Notes: generated by a model not told the origin, from the sequence alone. DNA of 64,000 nt from Synechococcus sp. AG-679-B05 (GCA_003210795.1 QCUJ01000005.1:3539-67538); one strand, 5' to 3'; counted from the stretch's first letter, positions 43,803-60,984 are shown. A program made the numbers and translations.

Positions 43803-43876
43803 GCTCCCTTAGCTCAGCTGGATAGAGCAACTGCCTTCTAAGCAGTCGGTCGTCGGTTCGAATCCGCCAGGGGGCG
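43803..43876 (+). tRNA. tRNA-Arg (anticodon TCT)
   Basis: Acceptor GCTCCCT/AGGGGGC, D-arm GCTC/GAGC, anticodon arm ACTGC-CTTCTAA-GCAGT, T-loop TTCGAAT; one mismatch in the T-stem. Confidence 0.96.
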
Positions 43877-43890
43877 CTTGTCACATGAGA

Positions 43891-43920
43891 GGGGTTTCAG
43901 CGAAAGCTGAGCCCTTTTTT
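43891..43920 (+). terminator. Intrinsic terminator downstream of tRNA-Arg
   Basis: GGGTTTCAGC-GAAA-GCTGAGCCC followed by T6. Confidence 0.85.
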
Positions 43921-43935
43921 CTTGGTTAATAGTTT

Positions 43936-43959
43936 TTGTGGCCCAAATTGTGGCCCAAA
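43936..43959 (+). repeat. Perfect 12-bp tandem repeat TTGTGGCCCAAA x2 (candidate integrase arm sites)
   Basis: Read directly; lies 60 bp inside the island end. Confidence 0.75.
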
Positions 43960-44023
43960 GCGCCCTATCATTGGGTTGTCTCAAAGACTGGTTGTACCAG
44001 CGGATTTCAAGGGTTGAATGGCC

Positions 44024-44389
44024 ATGCCAAAAGCCACAGCAGCAGAGACCGCCGACCGCATCGAACAACTCCAGCGGATGATCCTGGCCGGGTCCAACAA
44101 CACCGAATGTTTCGCCTTTGCGAGACAAACATTGGGGGTGTCTAGGGCGCAGGGCTACAAGCTCGTGAAGCGGGCCTGGCAGCAGATTAAGCTCGACATC
44201 GATGAGACCGGCATCGACCGGCAAGAGCTGCTGTCGTGGTCAATCCAGACGCTCATCACCGCGTCAGGTCAAGCCATGAAGCAGAAGAACCCTGGCGCTG
44301 TGGCGTCCTGCATCCGCCAGCTCGATCACATGACCGGCACCGGATACAACAGCCAATGCGGCTACGGTTTCCACAGGCGCACCTACTGA
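44024..44389 (+). CDS. HTH protein resembling phage/satellite small terminase (TerS-like), copy 1
   Basis: HTH-like FARQTLGVSRAQGYKLVKRAW followed by helical C-terminus NPGAVASCIRQLDHMTG; paralog at 49128. ORF is solid; TerS label is inference. Confidence 0.7.
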   Translation: MPKATAAETADRIEQLQRMILAGSNNTECFAFARQTLGVSRAQGYKLVKRAWQQIKLDIDETGIDRQELLSWSIQTLITASGQAMKQKNPGAVASCIRQLDHMTGTGYNSQCGYGFHRRTY

Positions 44390-44904
44390 GTCGTCGCCAA
44401 GTTTTGCCATGAAACGCCTTCTTTTATTCGCTCTTTTGCAATAAGCTCCGGCGTTGGCTGCGCCAGTTGTTCTTGATTGCAAATCAGTTGCTCACTATGA
44501 CGGAGTAGTTGATTACCCGGAGAAGTTTGTAATCGATCTTTAAAATAGATCGATTGACCATTATTGGCCTGGGAATCCACTCTCCTCGCGATTTCATCAG
44601 GTTCCAATTATTCCAACAAGATTTAGTCGGGTGCTGAAAATTAGTGCTATTACGCCTACGACAATCAGTACTAATTTTTATACAATTGATCGCACAACCT
44701 TGATAGTTTATAGTAGATCTAAGACTAGTAGATGCCAGCTTGGTCTGACCTGCCTAAAGCGAAGTTTTGATAACGGCTTAAGCCGGCTTTCAAGCTTGTG
44801 TCTACGCTTTCATCTGCATAATCAAATTCTTGAGTTTTCCGGCAATCGCTTGCAAGAAATGATGCATGGGCTTATTTGTTTGAATTAGATTTTATGCATC
44901 GAAA

Positions 44905-45621
44905 TTGAAATTTGACTATTCAGGCTGGAGCTATGGAGGCCTTGTGCTCAAGGCCAAGGGAGGAGCTGGTCCAATCCCGATAATTACACCCGACGAATCT
45001 TCACTTGAGTATTCAAGTAGACACTTTTATATGGAAGGCAGGCTGAGAAGTGGTAGCGTTTCAGAGAATATTTATATAACCATGTATGGCGACTTTGACT
45101 TTACGACCGAGGAGAAGGCAAATAAGTCAACAGTAAACTCTTATGTAATCGTGACTGATAATTATGGCAGTGCGAGTTTGAGCAGGATGGGATCTTCGCT
45201 GGAAAGTATAATTGATGATCCTGCTTCCCTGAGGAAGAAGTGGCTTAGCAAGGACAATGACATTATTGGCACACCTGCCAATGACAAAATTGATGGATAC
45301 AAGGGAGATGATGAGATTATTGGTGGTGCTGGAAAAGACAAGTTGACTGGTGGTGAAGGCGATGATTATCTCGACGGGGGTGGAGATAAAGACATCTTAA
45401 AAGGAGGCAAGGGTTTAGACACTTTCGTTGTTAGGAATAGTGGTTCTGTCGTTATCAAAGATTTCAAAGAAGGCGAAGATTTAATCAAGCTGCGAGGTAC
45501 TTCGCTTTCGGATATATCGATAGTTCGTACAGGAAAGCACACATATATTGAGAATTTGGATGGCTACTGGCTTGCAAAGCTTAGGGGTTCGCTGATTCTG
45601 GACGATTCAGTTTTTGCTTAA
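44905..45621 (+). CDS. RTX-type calcium-binding repeat protein
   Basis: GGxGxD nonapeptide repeats (GYKGDD, GGAGKD, GGEGDD, GGKGLD) and DFKEGEDLI; start uncertain. Confidence 0.85.
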   Translation: MKFDYSGWSYGGLVLKAKGGAGPIPIITPDESSLEYSSRHFYMEGRLRSGSVSENIYITMYGDFDFTTEEKANKSTVNSYVIVTDNYGSASLSRMGSSLESIIDDPASLRKKWLSKDNDIIGTPANDKIDGYKGDDEIIGGAGKDKLTGGEGDDYLDGGGDKDILKGGKGLDTFVVRNSGSVVIKDFKEGEDLIKLRGTSLSDISIVRTGKHTYIENLDGYWLAKLRGSLILDDSVFA

Positions 45622-45707
45622 GCAACCAAAGGATCTTCATGAATGCATAGACCTGCTTTTTATCACTTTAATTGTATTAATATGTCTTAGCGGTCTTTCA
45701 TAAGCTC

Positions 45708-45794
45708 GCCTGCGCGAAGGCTTTCCGAACACTCTGCCGGCCTGAAGTTTAATAGCTGCGGGCATACGTCGTTATTGACGCATTGCTGGATAAG
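45708..45794 (+). pseudogene. Decayed 3' remnant of a third TerS-like gene plus its downstream flank
   Basis: 45761-45794 matches 49470-49503 at 31/34 nt; upstream reads AC....EHSAGLKFNS versus ACIRQLDHMTGTGYNS. Confidence 0.65.
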
Positions 45795-45812
45795 TCCCTT
45801 GAACAGTGTGGC

Positions 45813-45832
45813 GACGCAATACCGATTGCGAC
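45813..45832 (+). repeat. Dyad GACGCAA-TACCGA-TTGCGAC
   Basis: One of six copies in the island. Confidence 0.8.
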
Positions 45833-45953
45833 TGAAGTTTATAGCTGAAAACTTCTGCTTTTTTGTCTCTCCCTTGTTCTAATTGAATTTGGCTCCGTCA
45901 GAGGCTTGTGTAGCGTTGACCCGGGATTTTTAATTTGATTCACTTTGATATGG

Positions 45954-46396
45954 TTAAAGCCCCAGCGACTTCTTGCGAAGTTGTTGATACTCGTCTTCGC
46001 TGATAGCTCCACTATCACGCATTTCTTGGAGTTTTGTCAGATCAGCCTCGACTCCAGCGATATTGCCTGCCCCGATTGAACCGATCGGTCCTTGATCCTT
46101 AATCCCAGTGAGAATCTTCTGAGCAATTACATCGTTTTCATCCTTCACTCGCTTCTGAATGGTGAAGAGCTGAACAAGGGCAATAACCCCAGGAATAAGG
46201 TCCAGCAAAAAACTAAATAAATAACCGCTTTGTTGACGTTGCTGAGATAGAACTCATGAGCACCAATGCCTCCAGGAATCAGGCAAAGCAAAAGAGCTGT
46301 GGTGGGATCTTTCTTTTTGTCCTCATATCGACTGTTGAAGGACGCCTGCTGCGTCGGGGACAGCTGCTCGACCAGCTTCAAAGTCGATTCCTTCAT
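45954..46396 (-). pseudogene. TM2-domain + SHOCT membrane protein split by a 1-nt deletion
   Basis: KKDPTTALLLCLIPGGIGAHEFYL..FCWT in one frame; LIPGVIALVQL...LTKLQEMRDSGAISEDEYQQLRKKSL in another; junction near 46198. Confidence 0.8.
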
Positions 46397-46484
46397 CGTC
46401 AGTCGTTTGTCTTGAGTTTCTTCTAACAGCAGATTCGTTGATTGGGCTGGGCTTGATGTCGATTGCCTTGGTGCTTTAGTCCTC

Positions 46485-46535
46485 CGTGCTGCCGTGCTGT
46501 CGTGCTGTCGTGCTGTCGTGCTGTCGTGCTGTCGT
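46485..46535. repeat. 8-bp tandem repeat: CGTGCTGC + (CGTGCTGT)x5 + CGT
   Basis: Read directly. Confidence 0.95.
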
Positions 46536-46562
46536 AAAAACGGTTAAGGCAAGTCAGCGAAG

Positions 46563-46594
46563 GGGCTGGAGGCAATGCCCCCGCCCATTTTTTT
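46563..46594 (+). terminator. Candidate intrinsic terminator
   Basis: GGGCTGGAGGC-AAT-GCCCCCGCCC then A and T7; imperfect stem. Confidence 0.55.
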
Positions 46595-47039
46595 CATGAT
46601 AAAACACGCCCGGGAATTATTTAGACAAACATTGCTGTCAGCACAAACTACTTTTGCGGCCAGTTACCTATCCAAGGCAAGCAAAGAAAGGTCACCGAAA
46701 CTGTGAATAAAGATATACTTGCCATACTTATGCATGCTGATACAGGCAAAACATAATCTCTATTCTTTGGCGTAGATACAGGCATTTTCAAAGAACAACT
46801 TGCCTCATTAAATCATGACGCCTGTCCTTTAGGCGATCAATTACTGTCAACAATATGTCTTATTTGTATTTTATTTTATTCAGTTTTTATCATCGCTAAG
46901 TCTCATTTCCCCTTAGCACCACCATCCCAAGGCGATCGCTGCCCTCAAGGTCTTGGCACAGCTCATACGGCTGCTGAAGGTCAACTCATGACACCACGCG
47001 AAAACATCACGACTGACATCCAGCAGGTGCTGCTTGATG

Positions 47040-47273
47040 TCAGTCGGCATCACTCACCCTCAACTCAGGCCATCGGTCTAAACACTTGCTGAAGTCAATG
47101 TCCCAGCGTTCATCCTCGATGTTCTGATCACCATCCAGGAAGGCGTGGCAGGCCTCGAAATGAGTGTAGTTGGCGTAAGGGTCAGTACCAGGCCCATCAT
47201 CAGCCTTGGCAGCAGTTGGAACGAGACCCAGTCCAAGTGCCAAGAGCAGCCAGAAGAACTTCTTCACCATCAC
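47040..47273 (-). CDS. Small secreted acidic protein with two Cys
   Basis: Signal peptide KKFFWLLLALGLGLVPTAAKA followed by a 53-aa acidic mature part. Confidence 0.75.
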   Translation of the reverse strand: MMVKKFFWLLLALGLGLVPTAAKADDGPGTDPYANYTHFEACHAFLDGDQNIEDERWDIDFSKCLDRWPELRVSDAD

Positions 47274-47276
47274 TAT

Positions 47277-47369
47277 TCAGTCGTGCTGCGGTTTATCGCT
47301 GTAAAAAATGCTGACCATCACAAACAAGAAACCGCACAGAGGCAAAATAATCGGGTCGATCAAGGTCAA
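47277..47369 (-). CDS. Possible 30-aa membrane peptide
   Basis: TTG-start MTLIDPIILPLCGFLFVMVSIFYSDKPQHD ending 3 nt before the next gene. Confidence 0.3.
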   Translation of the reverse strand: MTLIDPIILPLCGFLFVMVSIFYSDKPQHD

Positions 47370-47725
47370 TATTCAGGTTTTCTATTGATAGGTGAGTAGA
47401 AATCAAATTGACCGAACTGGCACAGTCCACTTTTTGAAAAGCAAATCAAAACCGAATTAATACGGTCAAAAAGTGCCATCTTGTACCTGCCTAAGCTGGC
47501 CCATCAGAGAAGAGCGCAGTTAATCCACCTGAATCAATGCCAAATGCGAGACATAACGGATACGTGGCGGAAGAGGAGATGGGCTGGGCTCACGAAGCAA
47601 ACGGAATCGATTCTCCCGAGACTCCGAAAAAAGAATCAGCAACTCTGGAATAGACAAAAATAAAGAAGTGAAGTGTCTTTAGGCCGCCGACTACAAAGGC
47701 TGCATAGAGTATTACACCTCGAATT

Positions 47726-47790
47726 GACGTAATAACCGTGTTGCGACTGGAAGTTGTTGCGTCAGTTTTTGACGCAATAAAGCTTGCGAC
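47726..47790 (+). repeat. Compound site: two GACGYAA-N8/N6-TTGCGAC dyads plus an extra TTGCGTCA half-site
   Basis: 47726-47747 and 47771-47790 read directly. Confidence 0.8.
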
Positions 47791-47881
47791 AGTTTACTTG
47801 GAAAAGTAGTCTCATAAAGAAGAGTTGTCGCTTCAGCTGCACTTGGCTAGGACAGGAATATTCTTTTTTTCCGATTGAACG

Positions 47882-48208
47882 ATGCTGGCGCTCATCGTCA
47901 TTCCGCTAATGCTTGGCGCCTTTGGTTCAGGCGTTGTTATTTCTTTGTTCTCTCTTTATTTGGGATGGAGAACGGGGCCAAGGATTTCTAAAAATAATTT
48001 AATTTGCTTCTTAGGTGCTGCTTTGGGGGTATTTCTTTGGGTCACACTGTTATTACCTTTTACTGACACATCACTTACTGCGAATAACCTGGATGAACTG
48101 CCAATATTTTTGCTTTCTTTGGTTCTTATTGGAGCTACCCCCTTAGCGGCATTCCCTGCAATCTTGTTTTATGGCGGATCTGGCAAGAAAGCACGGATAC
48201 CTGAATAG
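47882..48208 (+). CDS. Hypothetical 3-TM membrane protein
   Basis: 108-aa hydrophobic ORF with ATG start, flanked by dyads. Confidence 0.65.
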   Translation: MLALIVIPLMLGAFGSGVVISLFSLYLGWRTGPRISKNNLICFLGAALGVFLWVTLLLPFTDTSLTANNLDELPIFLLSLVLIGATPLAAFPAILFYGGSGKKARIPE

Positions 48209-48247
48209 GCAAAAATATCCTGTAATACCGCTTGTGACCGTTTGCCT

Positions 48248-48269
48248 GACGTAAATCCGTTATTGCGAC
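48248..48269 (+). repeat. Dyad GACGTAA-ATCCGTTA-TTGCGAC
   Basis: Read directly. Confidence 0.8.
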
Positions 48270-48304
48270 TGATGCGGATGAATATGTCGTCAGAAAAGCT
48301 GCTT

Positions 48305-48793
48305 TCAGTTTGTCTTGGCTTGATGCTTTTCTGGTACTGGAAAGTTTCTGCCTATTGCTCTTGAATAGAGAATTGCCTTGCCTTGGACAATCCATTGGGC
48401 GAATGTATTGCTGTTCGGGCCAGGCCAGTATCTGTACTTATTGATGAATGGATAGGTTTCTGGAGAAGATTCAATTTTCTTGATTATCGAGACAGCCTCT
48501 TCATCTATCCATTTTTGAATTAATTGCGATGGCCCGTTGCCAACGCCTTGGTAGGGATCCAGAAGATTCTTATGAAGGTGGCCCCAGCATGAATCGTTGC
48601 AGTGGGCATGTTGCCATATTTCCCATCTATCACATTTATGAATCTTGTTGTCCTCAACGGTATGAAATACCAGTAGCCAATAGTGGTCGGCAAAGATTCC
48701 TGGAAAGCTGGGGATTTTTGCGGTGCGAAGCTCGACTCTGCCCAAGCTTGCCTCCTTAGGCAATTGTTCTTTTGCGAAGGCTAATTGCTTCAA
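48305..48793 (-). CDS. DUF3750-like protein
   Basis: FADHYW, DRWEIW, YPF..KYRYWPGPNSNTFAQW. Confidence 0.75.
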   Translation of the reverse strand: MKQLAFAKEQLPKEASLGRVELRTAKIPSFPGIFADHYWLLVFHTVEDNKIHKCDRWEIWQHAHCNDSCWGHLHKNLLDPYQGVGNGPSQLIQKWIDEEAVSIIKKIESSPETYPFINKYRYWPGPNSNTFAQWIVQGKAILYSRAIGRNFPVPEKHQAKTN

Positions 48794-48841
48794 GAGTGGT
48801 TGTCAGTTGCCTTCAGTTCCTCTTAATGAAGAAGAGGCAAT

Positions 48842-48912
48842 AAAAAGGAGGACGGTTACTCACCAGCCCCCCTATTATTGATTGCTAGGGGACCCCTCGC
48901 ACTTATATTTTA
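48842..48912 (-). promoter_or_regulatory. Candidate -10 box followed by a ~60-nt structured leader or sRNA with terminator
   Basis: Minus strand: TAAAAT (48912-48907), then GCGAGGGG-T-CCCCTAGC...TAGGGGGGCTGGT-GAGT-AACCGTCCTCC-T5. Confidence 0.5.
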
Positions 48913-48990
48913 GTATGGATTATTATTTATTTTTGGGTTGTTGCTTAGGGAAGCATCCCCTTATGAATGATCTCCTTTGAACTTCGGAAC

Positions 48991-49010
48991 GTCGCAACGG
49001 TTCTTGCGTC
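48991..49010 (-). repeat. Dyad in reverse orientation (GACGCAA-GAACCG-TTGCGAC on the minus strand)
   Basis: Plus strand GTCGCAACGGTTCTTGCGTC, ~120 bp upstream of TerS-like copy 2. Confidence 0.8.
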
Positions 49011-49127
49011 CACTCACCGGCGTTACCCCGACGCATTGCCCGACGTGTTGCCGTTTTTCACTGGGATCGTTTTGTTCACCCACCGCGAGCGGATCGCCCA
49101 CCTGCTGAACACGGAACCTGACTGGCC

Positions 49128-49487
49128 ATGGCACGAGCCACCGCAACAGAAACAGTGGAGCGGGTTGAACACCTCCAGGGAATGATCCTGGCCGGGCGGT
49201 CCAACACTGTTTGTCTCACTTTTATGAGACAAACGTGGGGGGTCTCCAGAGCACAGGGTTACCAGCTGCTCACGAAGGCGTGGGCGCAGCTCAAGGACGA
49301 CATCGACGAAGCCGGCATCGATCGGCAGGAGCTGCTGTCGTGGTCAATCCAGACGTTAATGGCCGCGGCTGGTCAGGCAAAGCAGCAGAAAAATCCTGGA
49401 GCTGTGGTGGCCTGCATTCGCCAGCTCGATCACATGACCGGTACTGGATACAACAGCCATCGCGGTCATGGCATGCGTCGTTATTGA
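49128..49487 (+). CDS. HTH protein resembling small terminase (TerS-like), copy 2
   Basis: Shares GVSRAQGY, GIDRQELLSWSIQTL, QKNPGAV and CIRQLDHMTGTGYNS with copy 1. Confidence 0.7.
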   Translation: MARATATETVERVEHLQGMILAGRSNTVCLTFMRQTWGVSRAQGYQLLTKAWAQLKDDIDEAGIDRQELLSWSIQTLMAAAGQAKQQKNPGAVVACIRQLDHMTGTGYNSHRGHGMRRY

Positions 49488-49531
49488 CGCATAGCTGGAT
49501 AGGGTCCGCAGAACTTTGGTCCAGCTCAGCC

Positions 49532-49726
49532 GTGATCAAGAACCCGATTCTTCAAAAGGCTTGGAAGGTCATCACCTGGCGGTGGCGGCTGCAGCTTGCC
49601 ATCAATGCGCCCTTTGGACTGCTTTGGTTGGCAGACAAGACCAACCCGACTGTGCATGCCTTTGATATGTCAGTGCTTGTGGCACTTCATGCCGAGTGGC
49701 TCGCTCCAATGATGGGTATTGCTTGA
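49532..49726 (+). CDS. Small hypothetical protein
   Basis: GTG-start MIKNPILQKAWKVITWRWRLQLAINAPF...EWLAPMMGIA directly after copy 2. Confidence 0.55.
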   Translation: MIKNPILQKAWKVITWRWRLQLAINAPFGLLWLADKTNPTVHAFDMSVLVALHAEWLAPMMGIA

Positions 49727-49864
49727 GTGCACAGACGCCCGAACGCGGCTGTGAAGTAATGAGGCATGTGTCTCGCAGCACCGGCGTCGCCCTCGTCCCC
49801 ATCAGGGTCCCGACACCAAGCACCACGAGCACCAAAAGCAGCATCCACTTCATCGTTAATCCCC

Positions 49865-49955
49865 AAAAAAGCCTCCCTTGAAGGAGGCGATGGAAGCTTG
49901 AGGTCACATGGTGAGGACTTCAGCTGGTGGTGGATCAACAGGTCAGTGAGCCCTC
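49865..49955 (-). ncRNA. Candidate small RNA ending in a strong intrinsic terminator
   Basis: Minus strand GCCTCC-TTCAAG-GGAGGC-T6 at 49888-49865 with no convincing gene directly upstream; 5' end is a guess. Confidence 0.35.
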
Positions 49956-49963
49956 ACTCGTTT

Positions 49964-49983
49964 GACGTAACTGCACTTGCGCC
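49964..49983 (+). repeat. Degenerate dyad GACGTAA-CTGCAC-TTGCGCC
   Basis: One mismatch from consensus. Confidence 0.6.
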
Positions 49984-50025
49984 GCCAACCAAACCCGATT
50001 CAATCCGATTATTCGAGCTTTGAGC

Positions 50026-50211
50026 ATGAGTCACGCTCAAAATCTCTTCGCACTGACCGCCATCGCATAACTCCGAAATTCGGTGGGGGAGGCCAATTGG
50101 CAAACGATGGTCAACATGCGAAAGGCCGCGTACCTGCATCAGATCGTCGAGTGCATGCTCACCGAGCAGGTCTCGTCGCTTCCTGACCCCTATTCACCAA
50201 ACCCGGTTTGA
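50026..50211 (+). pseudogene. Small ORF with an internal TAA
   Basis: MSHAQNLFALTAIA*LRNSVGEANWQTMVNMRKAAYLHQIVECMLTEQ...; stop at 50068-50070. Confidence 0.35.
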
Positions 50212-50217
50212 TCCGGT

Positions 50218-50490
50218 TCAGCGAACCGGTGGCCTGCACCTAACCCAGCCTGTTTTCTGCATGATCTTCCATGCCTCAACCGCGTTGTGGCGAAGCATCC
50301 GCCGTCGGGTCTGCGGTACTGGTGGACGAGGTGGAACCCATCGATAAGTACGTACCGCGACCCACTTGCAATGCGCTGATGGAGTGTCTGGTTTGAAATG
50401 ACAAACCAGCTGCTGTTGCTCGTTCACAAGCCACCCCTCGCCGTCTGGTTTTTCCGGCGATTCATTGATGGAGCGGTCTTTGAGCGGCAT
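50218..50490 (-). CDS. DUF1651-like picocyanobacterial protein
   Basis: GEGWLVN, RRRMLRHNAVEAW..MQKTGWVRC.P. Confidence 0.75.
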   Translation of the reverse strand: MPLKDRSINESPEKPDGEGWLVNEQQQLVCHFKPDTPSAHCKWVAVRTYRWVPPRPPVPQTRRRMLRHNAVEAWKIMQKTGWVRCRPPVR

Positions 50491-50499
50491 GGCGTTGAA

Positions 50500-50658
50500 T
50501 CAACTCAAGTCAGGCATGAGCTGGGAGACCTCCGGCATCGGGTCCGGCTTTCCTTCGGCGATGGCTTTGGCGCGCGTGTAAAACCAGCTTTCGGTTGTGC
50601 CGTTGGCTTCCATCTTTTCGACGATGGCTTTCCAGTTGCTGATCTCGGCTGGATCCAT
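50500..50658 (-). CDS. Conserved small hypothetical protein
   Basis: MDPAEISNWKAIVEKMEANGTTESWFYTRAKAIAEGKPDP; ends 9 nt before DUF1651. Confidence 0.7.
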   Translation of the reverse strand: MDPAEISNWKAIVEKMEANGTTESWFYTRAKAIAEGKPDPMPEVSQLMPDLS

Positions 50659-50731
50659 GGAAGAAATTCGATTCAGCAAGTGCTGGAAATCTCCCGACGC
50701 TTCCGTGAGCACGTCTGGTCGTGATGTCCCC

Positions 50732-50768
50732 ACCCCGATTGATCGGGGTCACCCGGATCGAACCGGGT
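50732..50768. promoter_or_regulatory. Two adjacent 18-bp palindromes in a divergent intergenic region
   Basis: ACCCCGATTGATCGGGGT (50732-50749) and ACCCGGATCGAACCGGGT (50751-50768). Confidence 0.6.
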
Positions 50769-50854
50769 GGAAGAAGGGCAAGCCGGATGTTCGGATTAAT
50801 ACCTTGGGATCTAGCTGTTACAGCGAGGATTTGACCATCTCTGAATGCATTTAG

Positions 50855-51154
50855 ATGGCTCGCTTCTTGATCCAGTGGTGCGCTCCTGATCCCACCAACG
50901 AGAAGTACACCCAGGCGATCGTGGATTACATCAAGGGCGGTAAGCCCATGGACGAATACACCGGATTCAAAGTCCTGGCGCGTCAAATCCACCCTCACAC
51001 CGGTGGAGGCGCGCTGTTGGTGGAAGCAGATAACCTGGCAGCAGTGCAGAAGCACACCTATCCCTGGACCAAGGGTCTTGGCGTAACGGCGACGATCATG
51101 CCGGGACTCAGCGATGAGGAGTACGTCGAACTGGAAGAGAGCATGACCAGCTGA
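50855..51154 (+). CDS. DUF3303 family protein
   Basis: FLIQW, GFKVLAR.H.PHTGGG..LVEADN..AV..H.YPW, PGLSDEE. Confidence 0.78.
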   Translation: MARFLIQWCAPDPTNEKYTQAIVDYIKGGKPMDEYTGFKVLARQIHPHTGGGALLVEADNLAAVQKHTYPWTKGLGVTATIMPGLSDEEYVELEESMTS

Positions 51155-51211
51155 GACATCCCTTCGGACAACTCGAGGTCAGATCAGACTGACCGCTGTA
51201 GCTGCTCCGCC

Positions 51212-51454
51212 ATGCCGATTCCCTGGGGTGATCACCTCGACATGGCCAGATGCGTCGAGGTGCTGGGGGAATACGACCTGAGGGAAGCCACCACCGCGAT
51301 GGGTCGATGCCTGTTCCACCTGCAGCGGGACCTGATGCTCGAAACCTGGAGAGAGCAACTGCCGACCAAGCAGTTGGTCGCGTTTGCAAATAAGGCCCCT
51401 GAAATGCAAACAATTCTGCAAACTCAGTCGGAGCAATGCCCCATAGAACCCTGA
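51212..51454 (+). CDS. Hypothetical protein
   Basis: 80-aa ATG ORF with GC-rich codon usage at the island's right end. Confidence 0.5.
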   Translation: MPIPWGDHLDMARCVEVLGEYDLREATTAMGRCLFHLQRDLMLETWREQLPTKQLVAFANKAPEMQTILQTQSEQCPIEP

Positions 51455-51488
51455 CTAGAACTGAAATCTGGCGCATTATGCAATCTGT

Positions 51489-51538
51489 CTTCTAAGCAGT
51501 CGGTCGATGGTTCGAATCCATCAGGGGGCGTTTGTCAC
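51489..51538 (+). repeat. Duplicated 3' half of tRNA-Arg (att-site direct repeat)
   Basis: CTTCTAAGCAGTCGGTCG identical to 43835-43852; then GGTTCGAATCC, CAGGGGGCG and TTGTCAC are shared. Confidence 0.93.
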
Positions 51539-51925
51539 GCCAAGGGGGACAGCCACCCCCCCTTCATTTGCACGTTGAGAAGTCTTGGAATGACTTGTGG
51601 GCTGAAACTAAACATCACCCGTGACGCATGCATGAGGGAGCAGCAGTCCCGATGAGAAACCGATACTTGTGGCTCAAGCGACAACCAACAAACGCGTGAG
51701 TAGAGCGAATGCTTGTGCTGTCAAGCCATATAGCTTCCCTTCCAACATCTGGACTATGAGCACTAAATAACCAAGTTTGACAAGCACAATCTGGTTTTTA
51801 ATTCTCAGGCCTTGTGCTTGATCTGTTTTTGATCGAAAAGGAGAATTCAGCCATCGAGCCAAACGCCATACCCTTTAAAGGCTGATCCAGACACCTCCGA
51901 CCTGCTCTTTCAAGTCATTGAGAAG

Positions 51926-52117
51926 CTAGGGGTTGATCGGCTGCTCAAGAGTATTCGCAAAGTATTCAACAAATACAAGTTCATCATCTTCATCATCGAA
52001 ATTGCAAGCCGAGGCCAAAACTCTTATCTCATCCAGTCGATCCAACAGCAGCCCAGCGGCTTGCTCGACTAACAAGATGCCGTCAAGAATCTCAGATAGA
52101 ACACAAATGTGAGACAC
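51926..52117 (-). CDS. Small acidic hypothetical protein
   Basis: 63-aa ORF with protein-like helical and acidic composition. Confidence 0.35.
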   Translation of the reverse strand: MSHICVLSEILDGILLVEQAAGLLLDRLDEIRVLASACNFDDEDDELVFVEYFANTLEQPINP

Positions 52118-53117
52118 AATTCATCTTCTGGACGAGTTAGCGCCCTTCAGAATATCTGCTACATACGCTTGACCAAAAAAGGCGGCCGGCCAAATAAATC
52201 AGACACACTGGAATTTCTATTCAAACAGAAGCATAAATGGATACAAGCACCTGTCCTACATGAAGCGGTTCAAGCCAGAGATGGAGCCATGATGAATTAG
52301 TTGTCCACAAATAATGCTGGAATTATTCTTATCGCCATTGATTATCTGGTGTTTTATCACCCTTTATCGAGAACGATGGCCAGATGCTAAGAAATAAAAA
52401 TCGAAACTTGTTTCGACTATAAAAGCTCAACACTTACCGTAGTGCACTCTCAAGCCACGGAATAGATTGAGCCATCTGTGCCAAGCTCAAGAGCATCGAA
52501 CGACCCATTCCACAGAAAATTTGGCAATGCGCTGCCAAATGTTTTAAGTATCTTACCAACGGCAGCTACAGGATGCGGTCTGTACGACCAAGAAAACATC
52601 AGCATACGACCGAGTAATCGCAATCGCCCTAAACCCATATCAGAATCAGCAGTGATTGAGGCCACAGCAGCATTTAAGGAAACGCCTACCAATGGCATGT
52701 GCACGGCTATCCAGAACATTTAGTGCTTCCACTTTGTGTTGCACATTGATGACAGACCGTGGATTGATGAACTGAAAGTTCACAGGCAACGATCACCGGA
52801 AAGGCGTGAGACCGCAGCTGCTTCTCATAGGTGCTTGCCTTGGGACAAACTAACTTTCAGGGTTCACAATGGCGCACAGCCCAGGATTCGAGTTGGTTTA
52901 AAGCAGAAACAAGAAGAAGACGATCCAAGTGGTCCCAATGAGGAATAACTTGTCCGAGCTCTTCTCAAAATCGAAAAGATCGTATGGTTCAGGGATCATT
53001 ACGTTAACCGAAGGCACAGACAATCTAGTGGATTTCGCAATTGCATTGCTTGCTCTATGCCGCACCCATTCAGCCGCTACTAACAGCCCATACGTCTTGA
53101 TGCGACTAGCTTTCGCC

Positions 53118-53486
53118 CTAGTCGATGCCTGGGGTTGTTCTTTCAGACACCCTCTGCTGCATCAGTTGTTTGAGAGTTGCATCCAGTGCTGTATCGATAT
53201 TGCTGTGGTCTTCCAGAAACAAACGCAGGTATCCCCCGAAAGTTGAAGCTGCATATTGACTCGCTTCAGACAAACCAAAATTAGATCGATACCCTTTTTG
53301 AAAAAGGTCGTAAGTCTTTTTGAACTTTGCTGCCAATGTCTTATCAGCAGAAACTTGTTGCTGATACGTCTCGAAGTTTTTCAAATCCCTGTCATGAACT
53401 GCCCACTCTGCCTCCCACGTCCCAAAAGGATCAAAAGGAAGACTGCGATCTTCAGCAGTCGTGAGGCGATTATTGAAAGCAGTCAT
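53118..53486 (-). CDS. Hypothetical protein (possibly a fragment of a larger gene)
   Basis: 122-aa ATG ORF with protein-like composition. Confidence 0.5.
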   Translation of the reverse strand: MTAFNNRLTTAEDRSLPFDPFGTWEAEWAVHDRDLKNFETYQQQVSADKTLAAKFKKTYDLFQKGYRSNFGLSEASQYAASTFGGYLRLFLEDHSNIDTALDATLKQLMQQRVSERTTPGID

Positions 53487-53809
53487 GGTCTCAAGCCGAA
53501 TCCCAGCAAGGGTGAGACATCAGCCCAAAAACTGCAATTCATTCGATACCGAAGAACCAATCAAACCCGAGTCGCTATGGATTTTCCTAGACAAAAATCG
53601 ATCGCGTAATGGTTCAGCAGTGCCAATTGCTCCCTTTTGGGGGATTGATCCGGTTCAGGATTGATGACAGCTCAACCGCAGCACTCCAGAACGGCACAGT
53701 GAATGAGCAGCGACTGTCCACCTGGTGTCTTTTGTCCAGTTCGAGTCGTCGAAGAACCTGACATCTCCCTTCGCTGTCGCCAAGCTTGAGCGGAGTTCAA
53801 CCAGCCTTG

Positions 53810-54331
53810 ATGAGCGATCTGATCCTGATCGGTTTTCCCAAAGTGGAGGAAGCTGAACAGGTAGGTCGTGAGTTAGTCACGATTCAGCAGCAGCACTTGA
53901 TTGCACTTGAGGATGCGTGTGTTCTGGAACATGGCGAGGATGGCCATGTTCATTTGAAGCAAGCGATCAACCTTGCCGCAGCAGGGGCTGCCAGCGGCAG
54001 TTTCTGGGGGATGTTGATTGGTCTGCTATTCCTGAATCCTCTTGTGGGCTTGGCCGTAGGGGCTGGAACCGGAGCGGCATCAGGTGCATTGAGCGATATC
54101 GGCATCAACGATCAGTTCCTCAAGGAACTGGGTGAAACCCTGCCAAAAGGCAGTGCGGCTTTGGCACTACTCGTGCGTGAGGGAACCCCCGATCGTGTGG
54201 TGGAAAGTTTGCGAAGTCACGCGCCCAATGCCCGGCTGGTCAAGACCAGCCTCAGCCACGTTGATGAGGACAAATTGTGTGATCTGATCAAAACATCCGC
54301 TGAACAAGCCAAAGCCCTCCGTCTCGCCTGA
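53810..54331 (+). CDS. DUF1269 family glycine-zipper membrane protein
   Basis: MSDLILIGF, LEDA, GAASGSFWGMLIGLLFLNP, LSDIGINDQF, TSLS. Confidence 0.88.
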   Translation: MSDLILIGFPKVEEAEQVGRELVTIQQQHLIALEDACVLEHGEDGHVHLKQAINLAAAGAASGSFWGMLIGLLFLNPLVGLAVGAGTGAASGALSDIGINDQFLKELGETLPKGSAALALLVREGTPDRVVESLRSHAPNARLVKTSLSHVDEDKLCDLIKTSAEQAKALRLA

Positions 54332-54450
54332 CGAAAGTAGGAGCCAGCACCAACAAGCGTTTGACGCCCTCAAACTGCTTCGTACCCGTAGGCAGTCCTC
54401 CCGTTCAAAATCATGAACAGCAGGATTAGCCAACCTGTCGAAGGGCGTGT

Positions 54451-54705
54451 TCAGCTCCCTTTAACGGCTTCCTGTTCAGGGACCCAACCGGCATCAACCA
54501 AGGCATCTCCAGTAATCACATCGTTATCACCAGTGGTTGATGCCATCGCAAGCCTCCATTCCAACTCCTTGGCAGCCTTAACACAATCATCAGCGCGTGA
54601 TCGGTATCCATGAGATCTGAAATAATCAGCCCTTACATGCTCCCATTTGATCGCATATTCGAAATCCTGCCTGGATGACAATCGCACTTTTCGAGATAGG
54701 CTCAT
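54451..54705 (-). CDS. Hypothetical protein
   Basis: 84-aa ORF MSLSRKVRLSSRQDFEYAIKWEH... Confidence 0.5.
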   Translation of the reverse strand: MSLSRKVRLSSRQDFEYAIKWEHVRADYFRSHGYRSRADDCVKAAKELEWRLAMASTTGDNDVITGDALVDAGWVPEQEAVKGS

Positions 54706-55294
54706 GCGGATCAGTTCACGTGCAATCACATTAATTACCGGTCAATACGATCAGGGAAATAAAGTCGCATAGCGTTTTCGTATAGACCGAACAACTGTTT
54801 TTCTTTATCTTTCTGGCCAATTCAGGCACTCACCTGCGTGAACAAAAATCAATAAAAGAGCATCAACTTAGGCCAATGATTCAGCTCGAGGCCATCAAAG
54901 CCAAGCTCTGAGAATGAGGCATGGAAGCCAGCCCCTCGGGCAAAAGCACTGCTTAAACGGATTTTTTATTTTCCTCAGAGTATTCAGCTGTGTTGCGCAG
55001 ATGGTCGAATGGCATGAATTTGCCTAAAAACAGCACGCAGCAATCGTAAAATCGTAACCATTTAAAATACTGGCATTTCGGATTCCCTTTAGATTCCTTC
55101 GGGCCCTGCTGCTGGGTTCCGACTTTTTTCCAATGGCACAAAAAAAGAGAGATTTTGCTCTGCTTGGTGGAACGTTTCTATTCGGATTAGAAGCAATAGA
55201 ACTTGTATTGAGGATGGATGGACTCTAGGCAAGCAAATTGATTTGAAAACTCAAATATTGCCGGATTGATCGGAACTTTTTTTGTTCTCCCAGC

Positions 55295-55355
55295 AAAAAA
55301 CCGCCCACGAAGGAGCGGTTACTTGATGCCGAACAATCCCCATCACCCGACCAAA
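55295..55355 (-). ncRNA. Candidate small RNA / orphan terminator
   Basis: Minus strand AACCGCTCC-TTC-GTGGGCGG-T6 preceded by a ~35-nt G-rich segment and an AT-rich promoter-like stretch; no ORF upstream. Confidence 0.35.
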
Positions 55356-55940
55356 ATCACTACTATTAAGTTGTGATGTGCAGATGGTACATCAAGTTCC
55401 TCAACGATGTCTGCTATCTACTGATTCGCTTCCAGCAGCAGTAAAGGAATCGCAACCATATTGAGTAGTATCAAGTGAACCACTATCGGCAGGGTCGAAT
55501 TAGCTATAGATTGGTTTCCCCCATCACCCAGCCTGTCGCTTGCGACAGGTTTTTTTGTGTCCAGAAGCCAGCTTCAGGCAAAAAATCTGAACACGAAGGG
55601 TTATTGATCCAAACCACTTGTGGATTGAAAGCTAATGACCAGCAGAATCAGCCCTGGTATCGCACTCAACACCAATCCAATCTTCACCAGCATCAATCCC
55701 CACATCTTCAGCAACGGTTAATGAGCAAGGACAACATCAGACCGCAACACGATTAAGGCTGAATAGGCCAAAACAATTCACTCGATAAAAGCATGCTAGA
55801 AGACTTGATGTCTTAAAATAAATCCAAAAACGATACAAGGTTGAAAACAATAACCAAGCGGCGGAGCACATAGCGGCGACGAACTCAACCAAGAAGAGAA
55901 TAACCACTGCGAACTGATCAATTCAACAGCAGAATAGAAG

Positions 55941-55955
55941 TGATAATTATTTTCA
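55941..55955. promoter_or_regulatory. Zur/Fur-family 7-1-7 operator TGATAAT-T-ATTTTCA
   Basis: One mismatch from the cyanobacterial Zur consensus TGATAATnATTATCA; ~90 bp upstream of the metallothionein gene. Confidence 0.75.
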
Positions 55956-56042
55956 TTATTTGACTAAATGTGCAACTCTCAGGCGTTTTTCAGGCACTAG
56001 ATATCTGTTGACTGCTATGAGTAGCTGAGTTTCAAAAAACTG

Positions 56043-56219
56043 ATGACGACGACAATCGTGAAGTGTGCCTGCCCCAGCTGCAGCTGCGACGCAAGCGGTT
56101 CATCAGCCGTGTTTAAAAACAGTCAAAGCTTTTGTTCAGATGCCTGTGCAAACGGTCATCCCAACAATGAGCCTTGTCATGACGCTGATGGCGCCTGTGG
56201 CTGGATATGTGGTTCGTGA
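56043..56219 (+). CDS. bmtA: Bacterial metallothionein SmtA/BmtA (58 aa, absent from ORF track)
   Basis: Manual translation MTTTIVKCACPSCSCDASGSSAVFKNSQSFCSDACANGHPNNEPCHDADGACGWICGS; CxCxxCxC...FCSDACxxxH pattern. Confidence 0.92.
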   Translation: MTTTIVKCACPSCSCDASGSSAVFKNSQSFCSDACANGHPNNEPCHDADGACGWICGS

Positions 56220-56805
56220 CCTCATACGCCCCAAAGGACAGAGGGCACCTCAACTGGCGACTGATGTGATTCCATAGAGACAAACCAGGATTATGACCCT
56301 GAGCGTTTTCTCTGATCCCTTGAAAGCGATCAACTACAAACCGAGAAGTGCATGATTAGTCGCTGAGCTCCACAGGAATAGAGTGGTCTTGGTCATCATT
56401 CATAGCACTACAGGGAATGAGTCAATCCTGCCTATATCATTTGTTCTCATGTAAACAAGAATAGAAAGATAACTACAGCCGCTATTTAGTTTGCTAATCA
56501 CAAAAAAACCACGAATTATTGATGGCTGTTGCCATAAACCATATAGATGTACCAAAGCGTTCAGAGGTTTACTCACCAATGTCTATCTGAATCGCCAAAG
56601 CGTCTTACAAGCTGCTGCTCTCAACCTCTGCAGAAAAATCCCATGGTTTCTCTTTCTCTTTCTGCTTACGCCTCAGCCAAGCATCGAAGCTGTCTTCATC
56701 TTGATGCTCAACGATTGGATGGTCAGCTGGATAAATGCCCATAAAGGGATTGTAGAGATTTTTGCTGGCGACACAAAAATCGTTACGAGCCTTCAGAGAC
56801 GAGTC

Positions 56806-56943
56806 TCAAACAGGGATTTCAGCTTCGATGTCCCAACCCTGTTCCCTGAGCTGTTCCACTCTCGTGGGAGCGTCCTGAGAGGACACGTCAACAAGGTAAA
56901 ACTCGTCTGATTGGTTGCAGTAGATCCGAGTGAGACCGATCAC
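56806..56943 (-). CDS. Small hypothetical protein
   Basis: GTG-start MIGLTRIYCNQSDEFYLVDVSSQDAPTRVEQLREQGWDIEAEIPV. Confidence 0.55.
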   Translation of the reverse strand: MIGLTRIYCNQSDEFYLVDVSSQDAPTRVEQLREQGWDIEAEIPV

Positions 56944-57406
56944 GGCGAAAGGCTTCAAATCGTCTAACCATCTTGGTACGGCAAACCAATTTCGGCATCG
57001 GTGATTGCACTCAACCATGTCCAGCAACCCAGTCGTTCAGATTTTGATGAGTCACCTATGGCGTGTATAGGGCAGCATCCAGATCAAAACAACATCGGAA
57101 CAATGGTCTTGATAGCCATCGGCGTTACACCACTGTTTTGGGAAGGCCCTTGGACGGTCTCAGACACGGATGTGTGCATGAAAGCTTTCTCTCAGTCCTT
57201 GGAACGACAGCCAAGAGAAAGCGCATTACTCTGAATGGTGAAGCAAGAGTTCTCTCAGCAAAGCAGCCGCGATGTTCTGCCTGTTGTGTAGAGAACGTTG
57301 GCAAAGGAAAAAATAGGGACTTGGATCAGTGTCTAGCTCTGAAAGAAATCTTGAACCTGTTTTAAGGATAAGTGAGAGAAAATCTCCCCCCAACGGAAAA
57401 GATACC

Positions 57407-57622
57407 TTATGTGCCAGACAACGGTCTGTCCGAAAACGAATGATGTAAAAGGTCTGCAATAAAGCGCCGACCAGCTTTCTGGGCTTCTCTGACTGTTTTG
57501 AAATTGCCTACAAAATCGTACTTGCTGCCATCAACAGTCGCAGAAACCGCGTATAAATTCTGGCTCACTTTTTGGACACTCCAGCGCAGGAAGCAGACTG
57601 GAGAGCTCACTGAAGAATTCAT
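57407..57622 (-). CDS. Small hypothetical protein
   Basis: 71-aa ORF with a beta-beta-beta-alpha-like pattern (FVGNFKTVREAQKAG). Confidence 0.55.
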   Translation of the reverse strand: MNSSVSSPVCFLRWSVQKVSQNLYAVSATVDGSKYDFVGNFKTVREAQKAGRRFIADLLHHSFSDRPLSGT

Positions 57623-58269
57623 AGGACTCACTGCTTGGGGGATAAACCATATGCTTATCCAGGGCGGATAGGCAGACAAGGTTATTATTTCGCAAATAAG
57701 TATTTATTTTTTATTCATCTTTCCAGCCCTGCGCTTGGTGCTGCCATGCAGTGAACAGCATTTCACAGCAGCAGGAACATAGAACTCGTTGAAGCTAATT
57801 CCTATGCAGACGAGGAATGCAAAAAACAACAAAAGGGGCTGACTTTAAAAGCAGGGCAAACGACCAATCTCGTCTATATACCAAATAAAAAGGCAGAAAA
57901 AATCTCTACAAACGCAAGCTCGGCAGCACGACTGCGTCATACAGCATCAAATAATGAGGATTGATTCCAGACCTGCAAGAAGCTGAAACTGAATGCATTG
58001 AATTACCAATGCAGGTCATCAGAGCGAATGGCAATCAAGGCTGCATAGGCTGATCCATTAGATTCCAGGATGACAGGCATCACCCGCCGATAAGTGGGCA
58101 ATCAAGGCTCTCCATATGCTGCCGTGAAGCAACGGGGACCAACAAAAACTGCTCACACTGAACTCAAAAGCAAAGCCATAATGAATCCAACTACAAATGC
58201 GTCACGTTTTGATGGCGGCCGTTTATCAATTTCGTGAGAAAGTAGGTGCGGCAAACCACCCAAGTTCCA

Positions 58270-58542
58270 ATGACCTTTTTGATGCACTGGTCTTTCAAAA
58301 CCGGATATCACGAAATTGCTGCGAGGAAATTCCTTGCGACTGGTGCTCCTTTCCCTGAGTGCAAATCATGGAAACGTTTCCATGGACCTGGCTCTGTTGA
58401 GGGTTGGATTTTGGTCGAAGCAGATAGTGCCGATGCTTGTTATGAGCATGCTGCTGAGTGGGCGGAATGCCTGGATTGGGAAGTCACTCCAGTTCTGACT
58501 GATGAACAGGCTGGTCCCATAATGGCCAAGGTCTACAACTGA
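58270..58542 (+). CDS. DUF3303 family protein (second, divergent copy)
   Basis: FLMHWSFK, FLATGAP, RFHGPGS..GWILVEAD, HAAEW, TPVLTDEQAG. Confidence 0.85.
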   Translation: MTFLMHWSFKTGYHEIAARKFLATGAPFPECKSWKRFHGPGSVEGWILVEADSADACYEHAAEWAECLDWEVTPVLTDEQAGPIMAKVYN

Positions 58543-58547
58543 AACTC

Positions 58548-58573
58548 AAGCGTTCCTAAGGGAGCGCTTTTTT
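58548..58573 (+). terminator. Intrinsic terminator
   Basis: AAGCGTTCC-TAAG-GGAGCGCTT followed by a T-tract, just after the DUF3303 stop. Confidence 0.75.
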
Positions 58574-58585
58574 CAACGATTGCCT

Positions 58586-58840
58586 CTAAGAGACACCTAT
58601 GACAGAAATTAAGTCCTCAAGCTCATCAATCTGAATTGGATTTCTTTCACGATCATCGACAAAAGTAATCTCGTAACCATCCCAATTGCTTACAATATCC
58701 AATTCATAGAGGTTACCGTTCAGAAACATCCTGACGTTGATACCCCAATCCGTGTTCTGAACCAATAGGGACTCCACCTTATCGTTCTGGAGGTTCTCCA
58801 GCTGAGATCGAATGATCTCCTCTTTTTGCTTATCGTTCAT
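58586..58840 (-). CDS. Hypothetical protein
   Basis: 84-aa acidic ORF converging on the terminator. Confidence 0.65.
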   Translation of the reverse strand: MNDKQKEEIIRSQLENLQNDKVESLLVQNTDWGINVRMFLNGNLYELDIVSNWDGYEITFVDDRERNPIQIDELEDLISVIGVS

Positions 58841-59348
58841 TAAAGCCAAAATTCAATTCACATCTAAATCTTAAGGGCATTGTCTAGAGACTCTTGAGCC
58901 TTTTCAAACATCCATGATTTTAGGGCTTACAGCAGTGAGCTACGTTTTCTAGAACTGAAGCGGGGCTCTATCAAAAGTGTTGAACGTTGGCCGCGAGTGG
59001 ATGGCGAAACCTCACACAAACGATTGAGTGAGTCAGCAACCAAAAAGACTTGGGAACCGAATCAAATGGCATACTCAGGCAAACCAGACGTGATCAAAAC
59101 TATGTTCTGCGAATTCTGTCATCTTTTTTAAATTCAAGAAATAATGCCCTTGCATCGCGACGACGATTATCTTCGGTTAAGTATTTAATTCTATTTTTCC
59201 ACCACACACCAAGTGCTTCATTACGACACAAGGCATCAAAACTATCCATTTAGAAACTCGAATATAGATTTTCGCAAAGCATGGGAAGAAGCAAAGGCCT
59301 GGCTGGCGGCCAACAGAAAAAAAGTCAAGACGTTACTCTTTAGTTCAT

Positions 59349-59555
59349 TCATGGAAGTGTTGGCTTGATGCCCTTAAAGCTAACAACTAAAAATTCTTTT
59401 TCGACAATTTTTCCATTCTCGTCGAAAAGTTCAGGATGAACCGTCACTAATCCAGTTCTGTCGTGGGGTCTTGCATTCTCTCGTAGGGATCTGAGTCCCT
59501 GGTAAAGCACATAACCCAGGAAAACCGTGTAAGCAACAAAATTAAGAGTATTCAC
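59349..59555 (-). CDS. DUF2973-like small membrane protein
   Basis: N-terminal TM helix then DRTGLVTVHPELFDENG..E.LVV.F. Confidence 0.72.
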   Translation of the reverse strand: MNTLNFVAYTVFLGYVLYQGLRSLRENARPHDRTGLVTVHPELFDENGKIVEKEFLVVSFKGIKPTLP

Positions 59556-60981: not shown

Positions 60982-60984
60982 CGA

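Follow-up and report, generated by a model that had tools for sequence, protein, structure and literature searches.

The tRNA-Arg locus

The window, that is, the whole stretch of DNA that was analysed, comprises 64,000 nt of Synechococcus sp. AG-679-B05, the genome assembly of which totals 1,875,601 bases and is 77% complete. Under study is an array at positions 43877-51488, lying between a tRNA-Arg(tct) gene and a second copy of its 3′ part, and carrying two genes of a small-terminase (TerS) family, several cargo genes and a series of palindromic sites (dyads). The original prediction, made from the sequence alone, had described an integrase-less, tRNA-anchored set of TerS-like genes and cargo. 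The anchoring tRNA with its duplicated attachment (att) repeat is borne out, as are the two intact TerS-like open reading frames (ORFs), which lie on the same strand and are 70% identical. The features, with strand where one applies, are the following.

43803-43877, plus strand: tRNA-Arg(tct), left attachment site
43937-43959, plus strand: two 11-bp direct repeats with a 12-bp period, putative arm-type integrase sites
44024-44389, plus strand: TerS-family gene 1 (121 aa), att-proximal type
44905-45621, plus strand: cargo, RTX calcium-binding repeat protein (Pfam PF00353)
45761-45792, plus strand: 32-bp copy (30/32) of the 3′ end of TerS gene 2; its stop codon overlaps the left arm of a dyad
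45813-45832: perfect dyad, 6-bp spacer
45954-46396, minus strand: cargo, TM2 (46145-46396) and SHOCT (45954-46208) ORFs in differing frames (Pfam)
46477-46550: six tandem copies of an 8-bp unit, adjoining a degenerate dyad at 46531-46550 (2 mismatches)
47040-47273, minus strand: small ORF, the DNA of which recurs at five other places in the host genome
47726-47790: double dyad, consisting of an 8-bp-spacer site (47726-47747) and a 6-bp-spacer site (47771-47790)
47788-48235, plus strand: 448-bp cassette with a 108-aa membrane-protein gene (47882-48208)
48219-48238: degenerate dyad (4 mismatches), right border of the 448-bp cassette
48248-48269: perfect dyad, 8-bp spacer; start of homology to loci L246/L247
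48305-48793, minus strand: cargo, DUF3750 (Pfam PF12570)
48991-49010: perfect dyad, about 140 bp upstream of TerS gene 2
49128-49487, plus strand: TerS-family gene 2 (119 aa), of the dyad-bounded type that is met elsewhere in tmRNA islands
49964-49983: dyad with one mismatch; homology to L044 and L062 stops here
50218-51480: older right-hand block with DUF1651, a 52-aa ORF, DUF3303 and an 80-aa ORF
51346-51423, plus strand: pseudo-core (30/35 against the anticodon arm of the tRNA), with a further, different 12-bp-period repeat at 51405-51423
51485-51531, plus strand: 3′ part of tRNA-Arg(tct), right attachment copy (41/47 identical)

The GC content is 49% between the att copies and 60% upstream. 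Pfam calls among the cargo are the RTX repeat protein, SHOCT, TM2, DUF3750, DUF1651 and DUF3303; the last two are additions to the cargo types already named (RTX, TM2/SHOCT, membrane gene, DUF3750), all of which were confirmed. As had been claimed, Pfam and PHROG scans and locus mapping turned up no integrase, replication or capsid gene in the stretch from one att copy to the other; weak PHROG matches for window proteins, such as one to "RNase E," were set aside. An Rfam scan of 43000-64000 returned tRNA only, with no Cyano-2 or other small RNA. The TerS-like 3′ remnant proposed at 45708 is weakly founded. A DNA profile of 53 family genes had no match there, and the case for it comes down to 32 bp at 45761-45792 that match gene 2 in its final five codons and the adjoining flank; the stretch upstream of it, judged by eye, resembles a TerS C-terminus only with frameshifts.

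The TerS-family genes

The family to which the two ORFs belong is large, with at least 860 clusters at 90% identity, and its profile matches 192/401 genomes of the family. Direct searches with the window proteins against Pfam, NCBIfam, PADLOC, PDB sequences, phage records and IMG/VR gave nothing useful, and the link to phages was reached through an intermediate, the distant member L084, which matches phrog_34910 (E 2e-10) and six IMG/VR contigs. On these six contigs the L084 homolog lies ahead of terL and of the portal, scaffold and major head genes, the terL and portal calls coming from PHROGs. Two of the eight loci from this IMG/VR search, L099 and L100, were dropped as chance matches. Of 80 viral contigs carrying the phage homolog, 79 have a co-oriented terL downstream of it, no more than 50 bp away in 60, and the eightieth contig ends 487 bp past the homolog gene. 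Five cultured-phage records also carry it (MED4-184, P-HS2, MED4-117); in the Prochlorococcus siphovirus P-HS2 the homolog, annotated as hypothetical, overlaps a gene 72% identical to the viral-contig terL. The phage profile matches the window proteins with E values of 1e-9 and 6e-9, each for a single comparison, and profile-profile alignment of the window type with the phage family using hhalign gave 87% over 91 columns at 23% identity. The guess that these genes are TerS-like is thus supported by the position of their relatives upstream of terL in viral contigs and in a cyanophage.

The AlphaFold model of the window TerS (pLDDT 82.5) shows an N-terminal helical bundle followed by a hairpin. 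Among PDB structures the top row is the G20C small terminase, with 95 residues aligned at a root-mean-square deviation of 8.5 and a Z score of 6.8, which lies under the level that the tool counts as clear and so tells against the assignment; the row is among the few that span both domains, and it is tied with, or barely above, unrelated rows. Structural matches among viral proteins are mostly unnamed, several being TerS at E >0.1. A four-copy model predicts self-association via the hairpin, with a score of 0.56 against 0.01 for the best control, contact agreement between runs of at least 91% and partner pLDDT of at least 75; the mark used for self-association was calibrated on known structures, being reached by 20/30 known pairs and 1/23 single chains.

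Weighing against the assignment are that plain BLASTP gives no alignment between window and phage proteins, that a search of PDB sequences found no relative, and that no close relative of the window proteins turned up in the viral collections. A tree built from 34 host-borne rows and 14 phage rows, the latter a narrow sample, splits the two sets by one supported branch (99/94); the element-borne TerS form a lineage apart from those 14 phage rows and carry a differing, basic, Arg-rich C-terminal tail, for which reasons their function may have drifted. On the evidence of synteny, profile and fold, both window ORFs are nevertheless placed in the phage small-terminase family, and a likely function can thereby be assigned both to the unannotated phage family phrog_34910 and to the host-borne family. 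Binding of a packaging site and stimulation of TerL by the window TerS would be expected of such proteins.

Selection on the family is purifying. The dN/dS ratio between the two window genes is 0.24, and the median across the family is 0.19 (775/1378 pairs with usable dS); the neutral evolution that would have counted against the prediction is not seen, the values reflecting long-term selection on the family and not proof of function today. Among 80 metagenome TerS loci, 37 were intact, 10 broken, 16 remnants, 16 cut by the contig edge and 1 unclear. The host genome itself holds three further distant TerS-family genes and one decayed copy behind tRNA-Val (G000 C23:17025, C81:2109, C86:3142 and C96:661).

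One might suppose that the diverged TerS is an instrument of phage interference, poisoning the TerS ring of a helper or its TerL docking, and kept by the host as a defence cassette and not for the sake of packaging. Its long evolution apart from phage TerS, the predicted self-association, a C-terminal tail unlike those of the phage proteins and the retention of two intact copies without an element would all suit such a role. Set against this, of the 64 metagenome copies that do not run off a contig, 10 are broken and 16 are remnants (26 in all), consistent with decay after stranding; a constant place at the end of an element accords with a role in cis, and PADLOC gave no match. We regard interference as very unlikely.

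A further alternative, lateral-transduction-like, concerns packaging in situ. It would begin at a site inside the stranded terS, cargo and island DNA to the right being transduced and the 3′ terS remnants representing the left ends of the pieces so carried. The TerS genes do point into the cargo, 3′ remnants outnumber 5′ remnants by 31:7 (26:5 once seven distant full-length genes, part-matched by the DNA profile, are removed), and a PICI-mediated form of the process is documented in the accessible text of PMC12829572. The break points of the remnants, however, are spread across about 240 bases; the 5′ end of terS adjoins the att site, where imprecise integration would remove it too; the metagenome scan is biased toward C-terminal words; and P-HS2, a cultured phage with the TerS family, is described in the part of PMC7852597 available to us as likely T7-like in packaging, not headful. 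Lateral transduction therefore seems unlikely, if somewhat less so than interference. That the 3′ remnants arise at dyads was also considered and rejected, a dyad standing at the break in only 1/31.

Complete relatives, dyad sites and the XerC-like recombinase

A total of 58 stretches of about 20 kb, hand-picked around TerS-family matches in mostly complete genomes, were mapped. An integrase of the tycheposon kind faces the TerS gene from downstream in 22 of them (three partial), primase/helicase genes lie between TerS and integrase in 15, and a XerC-like tyrosine recombinase gene lies upstream of TerS on the same strand in 13, mostly just behind tmRNA. Targets include tRNA-Arg(tct), Val(tac), Ala(ggc), Pro(tgg) and tmRNA. 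The gap between TerS and the replication genes holds at least 5 kb of cargo in 7/15, and up to 12 kb among complete relatives; examples of this cargo are flavodoxin, a phycobilisome linker, a sulfotransferase and a cytidylyltransferase. The order in complete relatives is att-(XerC-like recombinase)-TerS-cargo-rep-integrase-att, and the tycheposon-like context that had been proposed for the window is met with in these related loci, where integrase, replication genes and cargo accompany the same TerS end.

Several further observations concern these relatives. The same cargo (flavodoxin, phycobilisome linker) is found in L036, L038 and L044, at tRNA-Val and tRNA-Arg, with an integrase, with replication genes only, and inverted with neither. 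Immediately upstream of terS a pair of conserved genes recurs (L041 9046-9791; L005 2249-3000; also L058, L068, L071, L322 and L327), encoding proteins of about 135 and 115 aa for which Pfam and PHROG gave no clear match; they are candidates for packaging or interference partners. In L072 and L092, near the phage-like branch, TerS is co-directional with the replication genes, the classical PICI-like order, and in the window clade the two are head-on.

The dyads share the motif G(A/T)CG(C/T)AA-N6-TT(A/G)CG(A/T)C, the spacer sometimes being N8. Five perfect copies lie within 43877-51488, compared with none in 1000 Markov-resampled sequences, and they are the only perfect dyads (spacer 6 or 8) in the entire 1,875,601 bases of the host. 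The dyads reported earlier are therefore real, the sites at 47771 and 49964 and the degenerate one at 48219 having been overlooked. Since the motif was drawn from the window sites, independent support comes from the relatives. In 1.77 Mb of related loci, allowing at most one mismatch, there are 78 dyads with a spacer of 6 and 1-8 for each other length from 3 to 11, and 70 distinct sites hold 60 different spacers.

The flanks of the dyads change partners. Of 39 flank types that recur among 170 sites, 28 are joined across the dyad to at least two different partners; the terS 3′ end is joined to five in as many loci, that of the recombinase gene to three in three, and one cassette end stands after either the recombinase gene or terS. 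BLAST homology ends within 8 bp of 48/85 dyads, compared with 9-21 of 77-82 positions shifted by 100-400 bp, in a test that can be biased by the conserved motif itself. Within the window, segments shared with relatives begin or end at 47725-47793, 48247, 48990 and 49970, and the double dyad at 47726-47790 is common to L039, L272 and L301 with differing flanks. A dyad lies about 140 bp upstream of the TerS gene in 14/62 family genes and within 110 bp downstream in 6/62, five of these at the stop codon, from which we surmise that terS itself travels as a cassette. Sequence comparison across these loci thus demonstrates that DNA is exchanged between strains at the dyads.

An instance is provided by contigs from three of the four runs of one study, in which a joint of 47787 to 48236 skips the 448 bp containing the membrane-protein gene. 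The depths of the skipped form are 2.8, 34.9 and 29.9, those of the filled form 7.3, 37.9 and 29.6, and the GAC shared at the joint is the right-arm end of both dyads. The shorter side of the joint is 27 bases and was flagged by the tool, a point against it; 27 bases plus the three shared would be the expectation for a clean deletion with 31-base words. The dyad spacers track the left flank sometimes and the right flank sometimes, and those around the skipped cassette are unlike, one of these dyads having 4 mismatches. In the dif (pdif) modules of Acinetobacter plasmids, exchange needs near-identical spacers according to the text available of PMC13141974, and the unlike spacers thus count against a recombination of that sort; because of both observations, we hypothesize that exchange here is less dependent on the spacer than in pdif.

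The dyads could also be operators of a DNA-binding protein, or passive dimer-resolution sites, in a mosaic built by homologous or illegitimate recombination and amounting to plain debris. Homology often stops at gene ends in any case, a conserved motif can stretch a BLAST match to its own edge, and a site beside its own recombinase gene is typical of a resolvase as well. Such an origin would not lead one to expect the same flank to pair with up to five partners exactly across the dyad, the same cassette end behind either the recombinase gene or terS, a skipped cassette ending in the right arms of two dyads, or a spacer fixed at 6 in length and free in sequence. We consider it improbable; the plain debris that the original prediction had offered as its alternative is insufficient, because the dyads behave as recombination sites delimiting exchangeable cassettes. 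A serine-resolvase reading of the dyads was set aside, no such gene having been noted in 61 proteins scanned, which were not subjected to a dedicated search.

The candidate enzyme is the XerC-like protein, which is 361 aa in length and has domains PF00589 and PF02899. By eye it possesses R, K, HxxR, H and Y, which we take to be the catalytic motifs of a tyrosine recombinase. In three of four proteins the best models are XerC/XerD at 108-128 bits, far under their cut-offs; the integron integrase model TIGR02249 scores 39-45 bits against a cut-off of 265, and the protein is not an IntI by that measure. The 3′ end of the recombinase gene was available in 25/30 loci, and a dyad stands within 75 bp of the stop codon in 8/25 genes, twice overlapping it, the background being 30 such sites in 733 kb; in L045 four dyads lie between recombinase and terS. 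A perfect dyad is present in 17/39 genomes with the recombinase and 6/357 without it, compared with 13/39 and 45/357 for a reversed-pattern control, counts that include kin genomes and are not independent, which lessens their weight. All eight genomes with two or more perfect dyads carry the recombinase.

Origin of the array and comparison with known systems

The region between the window att copies is a composite and not one element. In the complete tRNA-Arg elements L039 and L056 the same 12-bp-period arm repeat lies inside both ends; the array has the L056-type repeat at its left end only and a different one at its right, and so lacks the cognate ends on both sides that a non-autonomous element would have. 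TerS gene 2 and its upstream DNA are 84% identical over 1192 bp to the tmRNA-island element L042, and because of this match to tmRNA-island elements the gene is considered to derive from another element type. The block at 50218-51533 is 92% identical in G018 and is found partly in G023, with different DNA downstream. Summed contig depth, a rough measure taken from four metagenome runs, is about 45-410 at 50.6-51.3 kb and 3-28 at 44.4-46.4 kb, and the right end of the array is an older resident.

These findings bear on the proposal with which the array was first described, namely that it is a minimal non-autonomous element of TerS and cis sites only, dependent on an integrase in trans for its excision and on a helper phage for its packaging. 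An intact TerS gene 1 stands behind intact-looking arm repeats, att-bounded TerS stretches without a detected integrase recur (L037, L038, L044), and the integrase-less block at 50218-51533 precedes different downstream DNA in G018 and G023, all of which would be expected of such a unit. Its arm repeats, however, differ between the ends and match in L039 and L056; the right att of L037 and L038 is a 23-25-bp stump without arms, and the TerS of L044 has two stops. Stretches from att to att that lack both integrase and TerS make up 10/20 further stretches at or near tRNA-Arg islands (integrases are present in 7/20), and for this reason the integrase-less state is regarded as ordinary residue, which the accessible text of the tycheposon preprint (10.1101/2020.12.28.424599) also describes in islands. 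No att-to-att joint is among those listed for 8 runs, in which contigs show presence and not absence. The host genome, at its 77% completeness, shows no close tRNA-Arg integrase, the best match to the L056 enzyme being 34% over 258 aa. Complete relatives add replication genes and an integrase and the right 1.3 kb of the array is older, and the minimal unit is accordingly given up as a quite improbable account.

A joint running back from 50733 to 49926 in 4/4 runs was considered as a circle and rejected, L303 having the same 12 bases and then other DNA; because L303 continues differently, we take the joint to reflect repeated pieces in a different order. At 130-180 bp inward from the integrase end there is a degenerate copy of the anticodon-arm core of the tRNA; its orientation is inverted in the complete elements L039 and L050 and direct in the window (51346-51380), and it is possibly an autoregulatory operator or a secondary recombination site. 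A repeated foreign block in the window stops exactly at this copy. Beyond the right att a low-GC island continues for about 10 kb (51500-61000) with DUF1269, other small genes and a degenerate dyad at 56770. Among the cargo, the overlapping TM2 and SHOCT ORFs are likely one split gene, and contigs from other runs have insertions at 46198 and 46206 within this stretch. The six 8-bp units at 46477-46540 run into the left arm of the degenerate dyad, and this stretch is 32 bases shorter in one other run. The region of the 77-aa small ORF (47042-47265) is repeated on contigs C65 (twice), C67, C21 and C57 of the same genome.

Taken together, the array is probably a stranded derivative of a TerS-plus-cargo tycheposon, the cargo of which is predicted to be swapped at the palindromes by a XerC-like recombinase. 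The recombinase would recombine pairs of dyads, so that circular cassettes, that of TerS included, would be gained and lost in the manner of dif modules or integrons. Where an element is complete, TerS would recruit the terminase of a helper siphovirus and package the element together with its cargo. The copy in the window presumably lost, or never had, the integrase, replication and recombinase genes; with ends that do not match it would be unable to leave as a unit, but the recombinase gene at the host's tmRNA island may still reshape it in trans.

Several points weigh against this account. Both the recombination by the XerC-like enzyme and the packaging by TerS are what we infer from sequence. 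No recognisable dyad stands behind 17/25 recombinase genes, and 22/39 recombinase-bearing genomes have no perfect dyad. The recombinase gene at the host tmRNA is cut by a contig end after 256 codons. The 47787/48236 joint comes from a single study, possibly the source of the window, and is absent from the listings of four other studies, one of which has a contig spanning 47789-48248. The T7-like packaging described for P-HS2 belongs here also.

The wider questions are how the genomic islands of picocyanobacteria come to be filled and by what route cargo tycheposons move. In the text available of the tycheposon preprint (10.1101/2020.12.28.424599), cargo carriers (vesicles) are kept apart from terS-bearing satellites (capsids), terS/MCP elements are stated never to have additional cargo, and cargo elements are stated not to have been found in phage fractions. 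The elements described here combine TerS with kilobases of cargo, and P-HS2-like siphoviruses are the candidate type of helper. A broader proposal, which we put forward tentatively and hold to be rather less than probable, is that marine Synechococcus possess an undescribed integron-like capture platform, in which single-gene cassettes, terS included, are loaded into tycheposons by one XerC-like recombinase at a symmetric 7-6-7 site that tolerates mismatched spacers, TerS shipping the loaded elements, and perhaps stranded arrays, in siphovirus capsids. Were this true, the platform would join the "cargo" and "satellite" types of tycheposon and explain how island genes are sampled and spread. 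With a defined 20-bp site and a candidate enzyme, the loading of cargo becomes directly testable and island cassettes become annotatable by motif. A literature search covering few subscription journals found no prior description of the dyad, of the recombinase-site pair or of TerS-plus-cargo elements in Synechococcus.

The phage protein closest to those of the window is phrog_34910, the gene before terL in P-HS2, MED4-184 and MED4-117, which is of the same family by profile, similar in length and in its predicted helical layout. Its members are annotated as hypothetical or unknown, and the window proteins match them only via intermediates and carry the Arg-rich tail. As in PICI/SaPI and the marine VEIME, judging from the accessible portions of PMC9618062 and PMC12829572, an element-borne small terminase thought to redirect helper packaging is accompanied by accessory genes downstream of the packaging start. 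Unlike the TerS of PICI/VEIME as there described, the present one has long formed a lineage of its own, about 23% identical to the phage family and not near that of co-occurring phages, and faces the replication module head-on; the array, moreover, has no integrase or replication genes.

With the Prochlorococcus tycheposons, as far as the available text of the preprint goes, the elements share tRNA/tmRNA targets including Arg(tct), att duplication, an inward tyrosine integrase at one end, primase/helicase, cargo, terS in some, and degenerate island remnants. They differ in that complete relatives here combine TerS with up to 12 kb of cargo, and that text makes no mention of a second Xer-like recombinase or of palindrome-bounded cassettes. 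Tycheposons are there defined by an inward-facing integrase, an optional replication module and cargo. The array has the tRNA insertion with a duplicated 3′ part and the cargo genes, and lacks the inward integrase and the replication hallmark genes; alone, it falls outside the definition. Tycheposon-like inserts with a distal integrase in Synechococcus, and a different integrase at tRNA-Phe/Cys, appear in the accessible parts of PMC8995045 and PMC10187409, respectively.

Integrons are characterized by the integrase IntI, the site attI and the attC sites. Like them, the present system shows a tyrosine recombinase gene with an adjoining primary site (8/25 genes), then an array of mostly single-gene cassettes (as in L045), the stop codons often overlapping the site. 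Unlike them, its sites look like 20-bp dyads and not like attC hairpins, of which the Rfam scan, run without a dedicated attC model, gave none; the site is at the 3′ end of the recombinase gene, and the cassettes face both ways. The IntI insertion is treated in the available text of PMC8138268. The pdif modules, in the portion of PMC13141974 at hand, are likewise small accessory modules between short inverted sites with a variable 6-bp spacer. They are shuffled between replicons by Xer-type recombination, and here a XerC-like enzyme is linked with the sites by association. Their sites are asymmetric, pairing XerC and XerD sites that are served by host enzymes on plasmids, whereas the dyads have near-symmetric 7-bp arms of another sequence, not dif arms, and are found in chromosomal islands with a single element-borne recombinase. 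By analogy, the array appears to work like dif modules, or like an integron, nested in a tycheposon, yet it is a member of neither cassette system.

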